Under the pieces are notes generated by a model. The model saw only the letters and a program-made list of their open reading frames with translations, was not told where the DNA came from and did not search any database. Of a stretch of 64,000 nucleotides of DNA, positions 46,817 through 52,851 are shown piece by piece; position 1 is the first letter of the stretch, and the number at the start of each line of letters is the position of its first letter. Location: sequence record MN850651.1. One strand, 5' to 3'. This DNA comes from Escherichia phage moskry. The position numbers and the translations under genes are program-made.

Positions 46817-47065
46817 TTATTTAAGGGTGATAACAAAATGACGTACTGCTTTACGAGCTGCAGAAGCCAAAGGCTTAGCATATTTCAGTTCATCTTTTGC
46901 TTCCAGTTCAGAAGCCAAAGCTGCCTGTACCGGGTTCAGATGTTTGAAATATCGCAGGATTTCAAGAGCTTCGGCTTCAACATCAATAGATGCGCCATAG
47001 TTTTCGTGGCCGTTATTCCATGCGTTTCGTTGCAGTTCAAGAGCGTGTTGTAATTGTTTAATCAT
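46817..47065 (-). CDS. rIII: Putative lysis-inhibition accessory protein rIII
   Basis: 82 aa as in T4 rIII; lies between the 30.x island and gene 31. Confidence 0.6.
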   Translation of the reverse strand: MIKQLQHALELQRNAWNNGHENYGASIDVEAEALEILRYFKHLNPVQAALASELEAKDELKYAKPLASAARKAVRHFVITLK

Positions 47066-47181
47066 TTTAAATTCTCAATTCGAGATAATATTTAGTAGCC
47101 ACGTTCGTCTGAATTTCACTTCCTTTCGACAAGTCTCTCAGTTGTAGGCTACCGCTTAGAAGAGTGTTCTCTTCATATAGT

Positions 47182-47189
47182 TATTTATA
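47182..47189 (-). promoter_or_regulatory. Candidate late promoter for rIII
   Basis: Reverse-strand TATAAATA immediately after the gene 31 stop, about 120 nt upstream of rIII. Confidence 0.4.
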
Positions 47190-47522
47190 TCACTTATAAA
47201 GACACGGAATAGCTTTATAGTGGCATGTTACGAATTTCTGTTTAATTTCTTTAGGATGTTTAAGTCCCAAAGCCACAAATGGATGTGGAACATTTCGAAT
47301 TTGTCCAACTGGTAGTGGAGTCAAATCACCGACTTCAACAAAACCTTTAGGAACATCAGGACCTACAGAATGAACTACACATAGTTCAGGAACTTCACCT
47401 TGAACACGTTTACCAATCACAAGTCCTGATTCGGTAACTTCTTCATCACCTGCTTGAGCGGGTTCAGAAACCAGAATAACATATTCACCAACAGCACGAA
47501 TTGGGAGTTGTACTTCAGACAT
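47190..47522 (-). CDS. 31: Co-chaperonin gp31 (GroES analogue)
   Basis: 110 aa; near-identical to T4 gp31; MotA-box middle promoter upstream. Confidence 0.95.
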
Positions 47523-47552
47523 CTTATTTCCTTGTTGTTTGACGATAGATTA

Positions 47553-47577
47553 ATAATACCATACTATTCGTAAAGCA
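47553..47577 (-). promoter_or_regulatory. MotA-dependent middle promoter for gene 31
   Basis: MotA box TGCTTTA, 12-nt spacer, -10 TATTAT; RBS AAGGA. Confidence 0.6.
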
Positions 47578-47579
47578 TA

Positions 47580-47888
47580 TTACATAAGAAGCAAACGTTC
47601 TACTGGAGTACCATCAACCGAAATTACTTTATCAAGGCGGAAAGAACGCCACTGACCTAACTCGGTATCGAATGCTCGAACTGATTCACGAGGTTCAGAA
47701 CGAACTTCTGTTGATGGGTTACTATTTTCATATTTGACTTCAAGTTCATCGCGGGAGGCAAACATCGTACGAACATCACCGTTAGCCTTTTCAAATACAA
47801 CACAATGAACGCCTACAGACAGAATAGTTTTAATACGTTCACGAAGAACCATAGTTTCTCGTTCAGTTAAAATCATATTATTCACCAC
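47580..47888 (-). CDS. Hypothetical protein (31.1-like position)
   Basis: 102-aa ORF upstream of gene 31. Confidence 0.5.
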   Translation of the reverse strand: MVNNMILTERETMVLRERIKTILSVGVHCVVFEKANGDVRTMFASRDELEVKYENSNPSTEVRSEPRESVRAFDTELGQWRSFRLDKVISVDGTPVERLLLM

Positions 47889-48459
47889 AAAAGTTTCGGA
47901 TTTGTTCCCAATTCAGAGAACGAAGATTATTACGAGAGTACTGAATTACTTCAATACCGGCTTGTTTTAGAATGTCGGCCCAATTTTCAGGAGATCTGTC
48001 ATATAATTCCGCGTATACAACCTTTTTAATACCTGACTGCGTAATAGCTTTAGTGCAATCAGGACACGGAGAAAGCGTAGTATATAACGTAGCACCTTCA
48101 ATAGAATTACCTTTACGAGCTGCAAACAAAATTGCGTTCAGTTCCGCATGGATTTCGTTATTAGCAGACCATGCACTATGAGCGGCCCGATGTTCTTTAG
48201 CCAAAACAAAATTATCCACCCGTCCAAATGCTGTAGTGCCTTCTTTATGCCCAGCAACGATGACCGGGCTTGGTTTATTCTTCAACCAACCGTTTTCGGA
48301 TGCATGTTCACAACAGTTAACACCACCGGCCGGGCTACCGTTATACCCAGTAGAAATAATGCGCCCATCTTTTTCAATGACGGCACCAACTTTCCATGAA
48401 CAACATTTTGATTCTTGAGAAATCAGATATGCAATCTGAAGGTATGTGCTAGCTTTCAT
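47878..48459 (-). CDS. cd: dCMP deaminase
   Basis: 193 aa as in T4; zinc-binding deaminase motifs HAELNAI and SPCPDC. Confidence 0.9.
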   Translation of the reverse strand: MKASTYLQIAYLISQESKCCSWKVGAVIEKDGRIISTGYNGSPAGGVNCCEHASENGWLKNKPSPVIVAGHKEGTTAFGRVDNFVLAKEHRAAHSAWSANNEIHAELNAILFAARKGNSIEGATLYTTLSPCPDCTKAITQSGIKKVVYAELYDRSPENWADILKQAGIEVIQYSRNNLRSLNWEQIRNFCGE

Positions 48460-49451
48460 TATTGAACCTTATTAATATAAGTTAACAGCTCTTTAGTTTG
48501 TTCCCAACTGATGCACGCATCGGTAACGGAAACGCCATAGGACATATTATCAGAAATTTTTTGATTTCCTTCATGTAGGAATGATTCTATCATAATTCCT
48601 TTGACCAAATCATTAGCTGCTAAATTTTTACCAATACCAATTTGATTGCTATAATGCCCATCAGCGTTTGCATGGCTACAGTCAACCATTACATAATGAT
48701 TCAGACCTACTGCACTTGCTTTGTTAGAAGCTTCTTGAATATCAGAAGAATGATAGTTCGGGCCGTTGGTCCCGCCACGCAATACGATATGCGTATTCTG
48801 ATTACCTTCAGCTTCAACAATGCCTACAGTACCATCGACGTCCATACCCATATACCGATGAGGCCAGGCGGCACTATACATCGCGTCTGTAGCTACTTTA
48901 ATAGAACCATTGGTTGCGTTCTTGAAGCCTACGCACATCGGTAGACCTGAAGCAATTTCACGATGTGTCTGACTTTCAGTCGTACGGGCGCCAATAGCAA
49001 CCCATGAGAAAATACCAGAAAGATACTTAATCGTGAATGGGTCTAATACTTCAGTTGCTAATGGAAGTCCCATACGTAGAAGTTTACGACACAATGTTCG
49101 TGCAACTATAAGACCGTGGTTCATATCAAAACTTCCGTCAAGATATGGATCATTTACAAGACCTTTCCAACCTACGGTAGTTCGAGGCTTTTCAAAATAA
49201 ACGCGCATCACTAACAGAACATTAGGAAGACGAGTTTGAAGTTCAGCCAAACGTTTGCCGTATTCAACAGCAGCAATAGGGTCATGAATTGAACAAGGAC
49301 CTACAACAATAAGTTTGCGTGGGTCTTCACCGTTCATAATCGAATTAACTTGTTCGCGATGAGAAGCCACTTGTGATGCGTAAGCTTCCGACAAAGGAAT
49401 AATCTCAGCCAGTTCTTTTGGAGAAATAAGTTTTCCGACGACAGGTAACAT
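48459..49451 (-). CDS. 3-deoxy-D-arabino-heptulosonate 7-phosphate (DAHP) synthase, type I-alpha (AroF/AroG/AroH family)
   Basis: 330 aa; motifs GPCSIHD, VMRVYFEKPRTTVGWKGL, GARTTESQTHRE, ILRGG, DCSHAN, ESFLHEGNQ, YGVSVTDACISWE; metal ligands Cys/His/Glu/Asp and PEP-binding Lys/Arg conserved; RBS AAGGA. Confidence 0.85.
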   Translation of the reverse strand: MLPVVGKLISPKELAEIIPLSEAYASQVASHREQVNSIMNGEDPRKLIVVGPCSIHDPIAAVEYGKRLAELQTRLPNVLLVMRVYFEKPRTTVGWKGLVNDPYLDGSFDMNHGLIVARTLCRKLLRMGLPLATEVLDPFTIKYLSGIFSWVAIGARTTESQTHREIASGLPMCVGFKNATNGSIKVATDAMYSAAWPHRYMGMDVDGTVGIVEAEGNQNTHIVLRGGTNGPNYHSSDIQEASNKASAVGLNHYVMVDCSHANADGHYSNQIGIGKNLAANDLVKGIMIESFLHEGNQKISDNMSYGVSVTDACISWEQTKELLTYINKVQ

Positions 49452-49571
49452 AACAATCCTTAGGAGATATAAACAGATTCTGATTCAACAATACCTTTAA
49501 CCGGATTAGACAGGCTAAGTTGGTAGTGCTCAGATTTATGACCATTCTCGATAGTAATGAGATAGCTCTCA

Positions 49572-49808
49572 TTATAGTGTTCCATATACTCGAGTTGCTT
49601 CAACAAGACCATCACTGCCTAATTTAAGATTAGTAATTTGGTCGCCATCTTTAGGATTTACAATTATGAGAAAAGAACGTGGAGATTCTTGAATAACTCG
49701 TAATGTTGCATCCTGGAAACGTTCAGACACTTTATTTATGAGTGCTTGAGCAAATTCTTTTACTTTAATCTGAAATTCGTGCACTGTAATTGGGTTTTCA
49801 CTTAGCAT
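49572..49808 (-). CDS. Hypothetical protein
   Basis: 78 aa; RBS GAGGAA; early promoter at 49838-49867. Confidence 0.5.
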   Translation of the reverse strand: MLSENPITVHEFQIKVKEFAQALINKVSERFQDATLRVIQESPRSFLIIVNPKDGDQITNLKLGSDGLVEATRVYGTL

Positions 49809-49837
49809 TCTGTTTTCCTCATTGTGTTGGTAGAGTT

Positions 49838-49867
49838 ATAGTATCACAACTCTACCATGTTGTAAAC
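49838..49867 (-). promoter_or_regulatory. Early promoter for ORF 49572-49808 and downstream DAHP synthase/cd
   Basis: GTTTAC-N18-TACTAT; -10 in the loop of a 9-bp inverted repeat. Confidence 0.55.
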
Positions 49868-49869
49868 CA

Positions 49870-50145
49870 TTAAATTGCTTTGCATTCAATTTTTTGTGTA
49901 CCGAAATTGATATCACATTGGATAACTAAATCGCCGTCAAGATCAAATACCACGATGACGTGTGCAGACCCAGGGAGAAGAGTAATAGCAATAGAATCTA
50001 CTTGGTTTGGGAGCAAAGCATTGAGTACATGAGTTACTTGAGCATGAACTCTGAGTTCGGCTGCATTATCAAGCACTTCAAACATATTATTAGCAATAAT
50101 CTGACTGAAGACTACCTTTACAATTTCAGAATAAGTTGGGAACAT
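49870..50145 (-). CDS. Hypothetical protein
   Basis: 91-aa ORF in the operon downstream of pseT. Confidence 0.45.
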   Translation of the reverse strand: MFPTYSEIVKVVFSQIIANNMFEVLDNAAELRVHAQVTHVLNALLPNQVDSIAITLLPGSAHVIVVFDLDGDLVIQCDINFGTQKIECKAI

Positions 50146-50152
50146 AATTACC

Positions 50153-50377
50153 TCAGTGCACAGTATTTACTTTAACTCGAACAACAAATCGCTCGGTTGG
50201 TTCACCTACAGGAACAAACTCTACATGATATTCGCCTTTGTAACGAGTATTCAGATCATTACGAATTCCTGCGAGTTTGTTGATTAATGTAGGACTCATA
50301 TTAAGTCCCACTAGTTTACGAAGCATTTTGTATGCTTCATCTTCGATTTCATGATGTTTATCGTACATAGTTTTCAT
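50153..50377 (-). CDS. Hypothetical protein
   Basis: 74-aa ORF. Confidence 0.45.
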   Translation of the reverse strand: MKTMYDKHHEIEDEAYKMLRKLVGLNMSPTLINKLAGIRNDLNTRYKGEYHVEFVPVGEPTERFVVRVKVNTVH

Positions 50378-50548
50378 TTAACCATTCAATTGCCTGGTCG
50401 ACGTTATCAAATATACCACCGTCCAACCATTCTTCATGTTCATAGTCCAGCACATCAATACCGAACCGTCCATTTACTAAAGGCCATACTACAAACAAAT
50501 ATTCTTTATGCTGTTCGATGACCTCAATCACTTCATATAATCGTTTCA

Positions 50549-50549
<1 letters not shown>
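50358..50549 (-). CDS. Hypothetical protein
   Basis: 63-aa ORF coupled to pseT. Confidence 0.4.
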
Positions 50550-51635
<1,086 letters not shown>

Positions 51636-51636
<1 letters not shown>

Positions 51637-51935
51637 TATTTGATTCCTAAGAAAGCTTCAAGAATACGAATGTTGAGTTCGCGCCGGTCTTTATTAATTT
51701 CAGCAACGTTTTTATTAATTGACGTACTTCTAACGTTTGAAGAAATAAATTTAATCATATGACTTTTGAGTTGTTGCAAATCCAACCCTTTTTCTTTAGC
51801 AGCTTTACGAAGAGCTTTACCTGCTTCATCTAGTGCTTTTGCCGCATCTTTATCATAATTGCCAAGTGACATTCCGCGGCAGATATCAATATACTCATCA
51901 GACCGTTTGATGTAATTCTCTAGTAATGTTTTCAT
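51636..51935 (-). CDS. Hypothetical protein
   Basis: 99 aa; RBS GAGGAA; early promoter at 51965-51993. Confidence 0.45.
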
Positions 51936-51964
51936 TTAGATTTCCTCAATTATCCATAGGAGCA

Positions 51965-51993
51965 TTATACTCTGCTCCCGAGAGTTTGTAAAC
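51965..51993 (-). promoter_or_regulatory. Early promoter for ORF 51636-51935
   Basis: GTTTAC-N17-TATAAT; flanking inverted repeat GGAGCA/TGCTCC. Confidence 0.55.
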
Positions 51994-52217
51994 TATTTTA
52001 CTAAAGATTCAATATACTCATGAAGAGCTTTAGTCGCTACTGCCCACTTATTCTGATATTCATTTTTCAGATTAGCACGAGACTGAACTAACAAGCGGTC
52101 ATTAGTCGGAGGCAAAGATTCTAATCGTTGAATCTGGCGTCCATAAATCATAGCCGCCATTTCAGATTCATAGATAAGCCCTTTAATGTATTCATGCTGT
52201 TCTTTAGTCATTGGCAT
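51993..52217 (-). CDS. Hypothetical protein
   Basis: 74-aa ORF. Confidence 0.45.
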   Translation of the reverse strand: MPMTKEQHEYIKGLIYESEMAAMIYGRQIQRLESLPPTNDRLLVQSRANLKNEYQNKWAVATKALHEYIESLVK

Positions 52218-52498
52218 TTTTCCTCTTTTAAACCACTACGATAATAACATAACATAGTCTTCTGGTCATGTATATATCTTTTTACGTCGTTTAACCAGAT
52301 ACGAAATTCTTGAGAGTCTTCAAATGGCATTCCAACCCACGGATTACCATCAATAACCTTTACTTGCCATTTCTGGTTGTATTCGGAAATAGGCGTAGGC
52401 CATGAAGGATGTAAAGTTTCTTTAGGGCTTACTGGCACATCCTGAGTACATCCAACTAGGAGACCAATAGATAATACAGCCACAGTTAATTTAATCAT
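52208..52498 (-). CDS. Putative outer-membrane spanin lipoprotein (Rz1 equivalent; T4 pseT.2-like)
   Basis: Signal peptide plus lipobox LLVGC; follows the candidate i-spanin. Confidence 0.6.
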   Translation of the reverse strand: MIKLTVAVLSIGLLVGCTQDVPVSPKETLHPSWPTPISEYNQKWQVKVIDGNPWVGMPFEDSQEFRIWLNDVKRYIHDQKTMLCYYRSGLKEEKCQ

Positions 52499-52851
52499 TC
52501 TGAGAGCTTCCTGAGGTCTTCTGCAAAGGAATCGAAGGACCTGTTGATTTGTTTTTCGACCAATCCTGGCTTACTTGCCACCACGTTCTTCTTCTTCGAA
52601 TCCTTACGGAGCTTTTCATTTTCAGCCTTAAGTTGGTCAACTAAAACACGGTTCTTATAAGTCATTTCTTCGATTGACTGATATTGAATCTTGAAGTCGT
52701 CTAATACTTTAGCATTGTTTTTAGCAGTCTCTTTAACAGAAGCCAATTCAGTATTCAGCGAATCGACTTTATGGTTCAGAAATGCTATTGTTACAGTAGC
52801 AACAACTGCAAAAGCTGCCACTACAATATATGATGCATTTACTTTAAGCAT
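52495..52851 (-). CDS. Putative inner-membrane spanin (Rz equivalent; T4 pseT.3-like)
   Basis: N-terminal transmembrane helix YIVVAAFAVVATVTIAFL followed by a coiled-coil-like region. Confidence 0.6.
   Translation of the reverse strand: MLKVNASYIVVAAFAVVATVTIAFLNHKVDSLNTELASVKETAKNNAKVLDDFKIQYQSIEEMTYKNRVLVDQLKAENEKLRKDSKKKNVVASKPGLVEKQINRSFDSFAEDLRKLSE

Follow-up and report, generated by a model that had tools for sequence, protein, structure and literature searches.

Between an early promoter and the DAHP synthase gene of Escherichia phage moskry (MN850651.1), a perfect 8-bp inverted repeat overlaps the end of a small ORF and a TATAAT string. Does this hairpin control how much transcription reaches the synthase gene, as had been proposed from the letters of the sequence, or does it have a different origin? 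We addressed the question within the window, i.e., the whole 64,000-nt stretch of phage DNA that was analyzed, by comparing the locus to its relatives. The hairpin is most likely an accidental by-product of the old recombination joint that brought the DAHP synthase into the cd-pseT region.

The cd-pseT early region and its promoter

The window comes from a Mosigvirus, i.e., an RB69-like T4-type phage of the Tevenvirinae, and the interval studied is its cd-pseT hyperplastic early region. In a megablast search with positions 48400-50600, 201 phage records were matched, 139 of them with at least 80% query coverage; nearly all of these 139 are Escherichia/Shigella Mosigvirus phages, with identity up to 99.6%. 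The genes of the interval (46817-51448) lie on the minus strand throughout (Table 1). Plus-strand ORFs of 43-71 aa were also considered, and were dismissed as antisense noise opposite conserved genes.

Table 1. Features of the cd-pseT interval, with positions numbered along the window.
Feature	Position	Strand	Remarks
rIII	46817-47065	-	
gp31	47190-47522	-	
31.1	47580-47888	-	
cd (dCMP deaminase)	47878-48459	-	ATG overlaps the synthase stop codon (TAATG)
DAHP synthase, type I-alpha (predicted), 330 aa	48459-49451	-	Pfam DAHP_synth_1, phrog_5045; auxiliary metabolic gene
41-aa ORF	49460-49585	-	fills the Cd.2-synthase spacer; DUF7320 3' half, phrog_1504, phrog_15876
Cd.2, 78 aa	49572-49808	-	DUF7320, full-length RB69/T4-type gene
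Cd.3, 91 aa	49870-50145	-	DUF7355
RB69ORF227c homologue, 74 aa	50153-50377	-	phrog_3609
Cd.4, 63 aa	50358-50549	-	phrog_2360; start overlaps the pseT stop
pseT	50549-51448	-	
Early promoter, G-TTTACA-N17-TACTAT	49838-49867	-	T4 Pe133295 homologue
13-bp stem-loop	49828-49857	-	-10 box in and around the loop; PeSL-type cassette with the promoter
8-bp hairpin	49555-49574	-	on the recombination joint
13-nt direct repeat, upstream copy ATAATGAGAGCTA	49563-49575	-	Cd.2 stop and vestigial cd start
13-nt direct repeat, downstream copy ATAATGAAAGCTA	48450-48462	-	synthase stop and genuine cd start

The sequence-only reading had filled the interval up to pseT with four unknown ORFs of 63-91 aa. All four are present, but they are not unknown, being Cd.2, Cd.3, an RB69ORF227c homologue and Cd.4, all of them conserved hypothetical ORFs already recorded for the early cd-pseT region of T4-type phages. 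The 78-aa Cd.2 matches DUF7320 at 121.5 bits (cut-off 27) over profile positions 1-77 of 78, and is 96% identical to RB69 Cd.2. The inventory of ORFs given in that reading was likewise confirmed as far as it went, but a fifth ORF of 41 aa had been overlooked. The region is an ordinary T4-type early unit, the genes and promoter of which are already annotated in more than 100 GenBank genomes.

The synthase itself matches Pfam PF00793 (DAHP_synth_1) at 251.9 bits (E = 7e-75) and phrog_5045. Its N-terminus is ~9 residues shorter than that of E. coli AroF, in which the N-terminus contributes to tyrosine feedback inhibition. By analogy, the phage synthase might be less feedback-regulated than AroF, the closest solved relative (6agm, E = 6e-105), to which phage residues 8-327 were aligned with short gaps only. 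Both the family match and the full-length alignment to AroF/AroG identify the predicted enzyme as a type I-alpha DAHP synthase. The G+C content of the gene (40-45% vs ~38% for the window) would fit a gene that was acquired long ago and has largely been ameliorated. In the literature on the function of phage DAHP synthases, only mentions in genome descriptions were found, e.g., that of phiC120.

The early promoter between Cd.3 and Cd.2 (49867-49838) matches the consensus TTTACW-N17-TAYWAT as TTTACA-17-TACTAT, and is homologous to Pe133295, which is located between cd.3 and cd.2 in T4. Pattern scans of the minus strand from 49838 to 47577 detected no other early, middle or late promoter. The synthase thus appears to lack a promoter of its own, as had been claimed, there being no recognizable early, middle or late consensus upstream of it; the further claim that it is co-transcribed from 49838-49867 through the 78-aa ORF is plausible in view of the consensus and the T4 homology. 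Given a T4-type early promoter upstream and no other consensus promoter, Cd.2, the 41-aa ORF, the synthase, cd and 31.1 are likely co-transcribed.

The most stable structure discussed here is not the hairpin at the end of Cd.2. The -10 box of the promoter is enclosed by a 13-bp stem-loop (49857-49828; -17.2 kcal/mol, z = -3.7), which is far stronger than the weak hairpin and was missed when the latter was noted. It is intergenic, located in the hyperplastic region between the Cd.3 stop codon and the Cd.2 Shine-Dalgarno sequence, and is conserved in RB69 and T4; in OL960576 it is marked as a "terminator" overlapping the promoter. Promoter-early stem-loop (PeSL) cassettes, described from hyperplastic regions of T4-type phages, pair a strong early promoter with a stem-loop that often overlaps its -10 box (Arbiol et al. 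2010, PMC2839356; Comeau et al. 2014, PMC4122927), and TTTACW-N17-TAYWAT is the promoter consensus of the PST/T4-pair PeSLs (Comeau et al. 2014, PMC4122927). With this consensus and a stable, intergenic stem-loop overlapping the promoter, positions 49828-49867 are, as judged from sequence and predicted fold, a PeSL-type cassette. Transcripts from the promoter would start near 49831 and would be unable to form the 13-bp stem, which would be formed only in read-through RNA from upstream; such a restriction fits the insulator/attenuator role proposed for PeSLs. If any structure curbs upstream transcription here, the PeSL stem-loop is a better candidate than the hairpin.

The recombination joint and the cd.2 remnant

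RB69 has no synthase, and its cd.2 abuts cd. When the window was compared to RB69 by blastn, two collinear blocks were obtained (window 47001-48462 and 49557-51600), and 19 RB69 nucleotides align to the inner ends of both blocks, which amounts to a 1113-bp indel. A 13-nt direct repeat, ATAATGA(G/A)AGCTA (12 of 13 nucleotides identical), is found at 49575-49563 and again at 48462-48450, the two copies being 1113 bp apart. The module between the copies holds a remnant of cd.2, i.e., the 41-aa ORF, together with the DAHP synthase, and it is exactly this module that RB69, moha and mar005P1 are without. At the cd.2|cd junction, RB69 and moha read ACACTATAATGAAAGCTAGCACAT, and the window reads ACACTATAATGAGAGCTATCTCATT ahead of the module and CAATAATGAAAGCTAGCACAT where the module ends downstream. 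The upstream repeat copy contains a vestigial cd start, ATGAGAGCTA, and the genuine cd start reads ATGAAAGCTA.

The two arms of the hairpin lie on either side of the upstream joint. The 5' arm, TAATGAGA, is made up of the Cd.2 stop codon and the vestigial cd start, its RB69 equivalent being TAATGAAAGCTAGC; the G at 49568 within this arm either was provided by the donor of the remnant or arose later. The 3' arm is made up of the remnant codons (TA)T-CTC-ATT-A(CT), which encode Y-L-I-T and have TAT CTT ATT ACT as their equivalent in Entb_45. Since the arms are two unrelated coding fragments that were joined, the inverted repeat is most likely a by-product of the joint. The unrearranged RB69 junction forms no structure (MFE 0).

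Within the 41-aa ORF, homology to cd.2 starts at ~49570, directly after the cd stub. The ORF matches DUF7320 in Pfam over positions 44-76 only (E = 1.2e-6, 28.8 bits), and it matches phrog_1504 (E = 1.6e-5) with its C-terminal half only, in addition to phrog_15876. The remnant, ESYLITIENGHK...VESESVY, is closer to the cd.2 of Kanagawavirus and Marfavirus (VSYLITIEKG...VESHSVY) than to the resident Cd.2 (RSFLIIVNPKDG...VEATRVY), and the pattern SYLITIE...VES.SVY is common to the remnant and to the cd.2 that precedes the synthase in these two genera. In a tblastn search against phages for a close donor of the remnant, the best match outside Mosigvirus was 54% identical and belongs to Pectobacterium phage PM2, which is without the synthase. 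In one record the 41-aa CDS is labeled "olfactory receptor-like protein."

As the sequence comparison shows, the first ~10 nt of cd (TAATGA.AGCTA), which follow right behind the Cd.2 stop, continue at the left joint midway into a cd.2 gene of the Kanagawavirus/Marfavirus type. The module consists of a foreign cd.2-type gene reduced to its 3' half and a type I-alpha synthase, placed between Cd.2 and cd, and it is because the left joint carries the cd start stub that a 13-nt direct repeat brackets it.

Could the 41-aa ORF instead be a genuine small gene, i.e., a shortened Cd.2 paralogue coupled to the synthase, with the hairpin located in its initiation region? Many records carry it as an annotated CDS, it has a PHROG family of its own (phrog_15876), and the synthase Shine-Dalgarno sequence shares nucleotides with its TAA stop (TAA-GG), as it does with the stop of the full-length cd.2 in Kanagawavirus. 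However, the N-terminal half of the domain is missing, its Shine-Dalgarno sequence is weak, and the frame has not been kept among relatives. When the spacer was compared among ten DAHP-synthase-positive Mosigvirus sequences, the start of the remnant was lost or its frame shifted in three: the start codon ATG is replaced by ACG in p000v and G2285, and a 2-nt insertion in GADS24 shifts the frame (+2). Most of the other changes in the remnant are non-synonymous (E>V, H>Y, P>L, S>Y). With neither a full-length DUF7320 domain nor an intact conserved frame found for the 41-aa ORF, a functional small gene seems unlikely to us, and we regard the CDS that appears in many Mosigvirus annotations as a probable pseudogene remnant. 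We also rejected a programmed frameshift that would fuse Cd.2 to the remnant, as there is no slippery motif and the frame of the remnant is broken in GADS24.

Structure and possible roles of the hairpin

The perfect 8-bp inverted repeat described from the sequence is indeed present on the minus strand, with arms TAATGAGA (49574-49567) and TCTCATTA (49562-49555) separated by the loop GCTA, or, as RNA, UAAUGAGA-GCUA-UCUCAUUA. It overlaps both the TAA stop codon of Cd.2 (49574-49572) and the TATAAT string (49576-49571), again as described. Its fold is weak and AU-rich (-7.4 kcal/mol), with z-scores of -4.7 for the 20 nt alone, -2.3 for 40 nt and 0.02 in a 141-nt context. Counting perfect 8-bp stems with loops of 3-8 nt over the 64 kb, we observed 26 such windows vs 10.3 ± 3.5 in dinucleotide-preserving shuffles. 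The surplus over the shuffles consists mostly of G+C-rich stems, therefore an AU-rich 8-bp stem is not beyond chance. The hairpin is real, though statistically unremarkable.

The TATAAT string had been referred to as an element. Pattern scans were performed for a -35 hexamer or GTTTAC at 17 ± 1 nt, a MotA box ~12 nt upstream, or the late motif TATAAATA; no -35 hexamer, TG extension or MotA box was found with the string, which also differs from TATAAATA. Its letters are just those of the codons CTA-TAA and the T that follows, and RB69 has the same string. A promoter element is thus not supported by any early, middle or late consensus, and the string is coding and stop sequence.

Several features would suit an attenuator or an RNA-processing site controlling the amount of early transcription, or of stable mRNA, that reaches the synthase: the hairpin is located on the transcribed strand between promoter and synthase, its 8-bp stem is perfect, and it is identical in nine of the ten synthase-positive relatives compared. 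This retention, however, is weak evidence either way because overall identity is at least 96%, and the one exception is informative against the proposal, since in phage a20 a C>A change in the 3' arm breaks a G-C pair and abolishes the stem without compensation (fold of -1.0 kcal/mol). Moreover, the G+C-rich stem and U run of an intrinsic terminator or attenuator are both lacking, as only two of the eight pairs are G-C and the sequence that follows, CUAUCGAGAAUGG, contains no U-tract, and the hairpin was not called in a terminator scan. No family was matched in an Rfam scan of 47000-52500 (E ≤ 1); with neither compensatory changes nor an Rfam match, the hairpin does not qualify as a conserved structured RNA. 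Its z-score vanishes in the 141-nt context, and ~10 such repeats are expected by chance in any case. In addition, ribosomes finishing Cd.2 must melt the 5' arm, and the hairpin is absent from the other synthase-bearing genera because the joint is absent there. The synthase Shine-Dalgarno sequence AAGGA (49461-49457, 5 nt before the ATG) is ~95 nt downstream of the hairpin, which is too far for direct occlusion. A regulatory role of this kind, which was the proposal of the sequence-only reading, is accordingly very unlikely.

A subtler possibility is that the hairpin was selected after the rearrangement for its effect on translation. The vestigial TAATG (ATG at 49572-49570) opens an out-of-frame ORF of 55 codons that runs past the synthase start and ends at 49405, and the vestigial ATG is located inside the 5' arm of the hairpin. 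With the RB69-type A instead of G at 49568, the stem has -2.3 rather than -7.4 kcal/mol; this single A>G change, which completes the stem relative to the RB69-type junction, could hint at selection, and would bury the leftover TAATG and block out-of-frame reinitiation across the ribosome-binding site and start of the synthase. If true, a phage would here have repaired, on a small scale, the translational side effects of a cassette insertion. Against it, the stem-completing G may simply come from the donor sequence, a20 has lost the stem, and the 55-codon frame has been cut by independent mutations in a20 (4 codons), in 308Ecol101PP and L012 (8 codons each) and in GADS24 (19 codons), although it is intact elsewhere. 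Such scattered truncation looks like drift, not like a controlled feature, and we regard selection for a translational device as very unlikely. A scan of IMG/VR for further Mosigvirus variants added only L011 and L012, the remaining matches being distant T4-likes and giant-virus contigs.

In the relatives aligned here, the pattern of change along the spacer is that of a drifting pseudogene, and of neither a gene nor a structured RNA. Under the preferred explanation, i.e., a hairpin left behind by the recombination joint, the synthase would be an early protein made from the polycistronic mRNA of the PeSL-type promoter, plus any read-through from upstream, with cd next in line. Its translation would rely on a ribosome-binding site of its own, AAGGA, with the hairpin and the remnant spacer of 120 nt being carried passively.

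Distribution of the module and comparison with known systems

The synthase was detected by tblastn in 212 phage records, the genera including Mosigvirus, Kanagawavirus, Kagamiyamavirus, Winklervirus, Marfavirus (Klebsiella phages) and Bragavirus. In the six relatives for which the neighborhood was examined, it is located between pseT and cd. The joint is carried by 139 Mosigvirus records (identity at least 95.9%), and ~11 Mosigvirus records are without the module, including RB69, moha, mar005P1 and ECO111 5-P. One record named Mosigvirus mar005p1 has the remnant, which the other mar005P1 records do not.

Within 388 nt of upstream flank, differences at 10-11 nt separate RB69 and moha from the synthase-positive phages a20 and F27, and differences at up to 43 nt separate synthase-positive phages from one another. 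The synthase-less phages are therefore nested inside the synthase-positive diversity, and this nesting favors one old joint, with secondary loss across the 13-nt repeat or exchange during co-infection as the later event. As far as these flanks can tell, deletion or recombination between the two copies of the 13-nt repeat is the probable route by which synthase-less Mosigviruses such as RB69 lost the module; the polarity of gain and loss is only suggestive because T4-type phages recombine freely. The explanation as a whole, comprising a scar hairpin, the structure of the module, a passive spacer, co-transcription and later loss, is one that we hold with fairly good confidence.

The locus has little regulatory significance and is a standard T4-type early transcription unit. 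It does provide a base-resolved example of an auxiliary metabolic gene seated in a T4-type hyperplastic region: the joint falls within the first codons of cd, half of a second copy of the neighboring gene is decaying alongside, and the 13-nt repeat could serve to excise the module again. What the DAHP synthase does for the phage is a more interesting question than the hairpin.

All elements of the locus are of known kinds, i.e., a T4 early unit, a PeSL cassette and an auxiliary metabolic gene. The cd-pseT region of T4 (NC_000866) has the same order of pseT, small cd.x ORFs, a promoter between cd.3 and cd.2, cd, 31.1, 31 and rIII, and its Pe133295 promoter and stem-loop are almost identical to those of the window. 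The cd.1-cd.5 interval of T4 had been pointed out earlier as a comparison worth making, and it both confirms the window's promoter as the homologue of Pe133295 and reveals cd.1, between cd.2 and cd, in the place occupied by the DAHP synthase in the window phage. The two phages differ further upstream, where T4 has cd.5 and cd.4 and the window phage has Cd.4 and the ORF227c homologue.

The closest parallel to the arrangement of the synthase is found in Kanagawavirus (PEi26, Entb_45), in which a synthase 77% identical to that of the window likewise lies directly upstream of cd, and the TAA stop of the preceding cd.2-type gene forms part of the synthase Shine-Dalgarno sequence. Unlike Kanagawavirus, the window keeps only the 3' half of that cd.2 copy, fused behind a complete Cd.2 and a 10-nt cd stub. 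In Marfavirus P545, cd.2 precedes the synthase after a longer spacer, and there is an extra ORF between the synthase and cd. As for the enzyme, the phage protein was aligned nearly end to end with E. coli AroF, from which it differs by the shortened N-terminus.

The cassette at 49828-49867 resembles the described PeSLs in sharing their promoter consensus and a stem-loop over the -10 box, and in its placement in a hyperplastic region, directly behind the stop of a small ORF, with the Shine-Dalgarno sequence of the following ORF coming after it (Arbiol et al. 2010, PMC2839356; Comeau et al. 2014, PMC4122927). It differs from them in that its stem-loop is without a U-tract and the terminator activity of the stem-loop is putative. 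Also, the indel containing the synthase is not bounded by PeSLs, its joints being the 13-nt repeat derived from the start of cd.

Deletions and illegitimate joins at short direct repeats are known in T4 from the classical studies of rII deletions. The situation here is similar in that a short repeat (13 nt, 12 of 13 identical) stands at both ends of precisely the segment whose presence varies among close relatives. It differs in that the event is reconstructed from comparison, and homologous exchange during co-infection could give rise to the same pattern.

Stem-loops at early promoters

The early promoter upstream of the DAHP synthase has its -10 box enclosed in a stable 13-bp stem-loop, which is also kept in RB69 and in T4 (Pe133295, the early promoter between cd.3 and cd.2). 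Together, this stem-loop and the early promoter match the published promoter-early stem-loop (PeSL) cassettes of T4-type phages. The sequence-only reading had proposed that the 8-bp hairpin overlapping the Cd.2 stop codon may be an attenuator or processing site; compared with that hairpin, the promoter stem-loop is much the stronger candidate for a structure that restricts read-through from upstream.

At a second early promoter, the -10 box lies in the loop of a 7-bp stem (GGGAGCA...UGCUCCU), which is weaker than the 13-bp stem-loop (z -1.7). The element is annotated in one GenBank record as an overlapping terminator and promoter, and looks like another PeSL-like cassette.

Coordinates of the principal features
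Feature	Position	Strand	Details
13-bp stem-loop	49828-49857	minus	-17.2 kcal/mol; encloses early promoter -10 box
Phage DAHP synthase	48459-49451	minus	
Second early promoter	51964-51993	minus	GTTTACA-N17-TATAAT

The DAHP synthase and its module

When the phage DAHP synthase was aligned to E. coli AroF, phage residue 8 fell opposite AroF residue 17, and the N-terminus is thus about nine residues shorter in the phage enzyme. Because the AroF N-terminus is involved in feedback inhibition, the phage enzyme may be feedback-insensitive. Homologues 40-47% identical to it were observed on many IMG/VR contigs binned as giant-virus MAGs (GVMAG contigs, loci L027-L085), which may be genuinely viral or may represent contaminating cellular DNA.

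Presence of the DAHP synthase module (the synthase plus a cd.2 remnant) differs among records all named Mosigvirus mar005p1 (GenBank OZ035759.1 versus LR027387.1 and LR027391.1), a sign that the module was gained or lost recently inside a single species. Many Mosigvirus records annotate the decaying cd.2 remnant (49460-49585) as a coding sequence; the RefSeq entry for HX01 (NC_018855.1) names it "olfactory receptor-like protein," very likely an annotation artefact.

Gene overlaps downstream of pseT

The start of Cd.4 overlaps the pseT stop at 50549, and the end of Cd.4 is overlapped over 20 nt (50358-50377) by the RB69ORF227c homologue. The PHROG match of this homologue begins at residue 4, so its second Met may be the true start. 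This is the close coupling of translation between neighbouring genes that is typical of T4.
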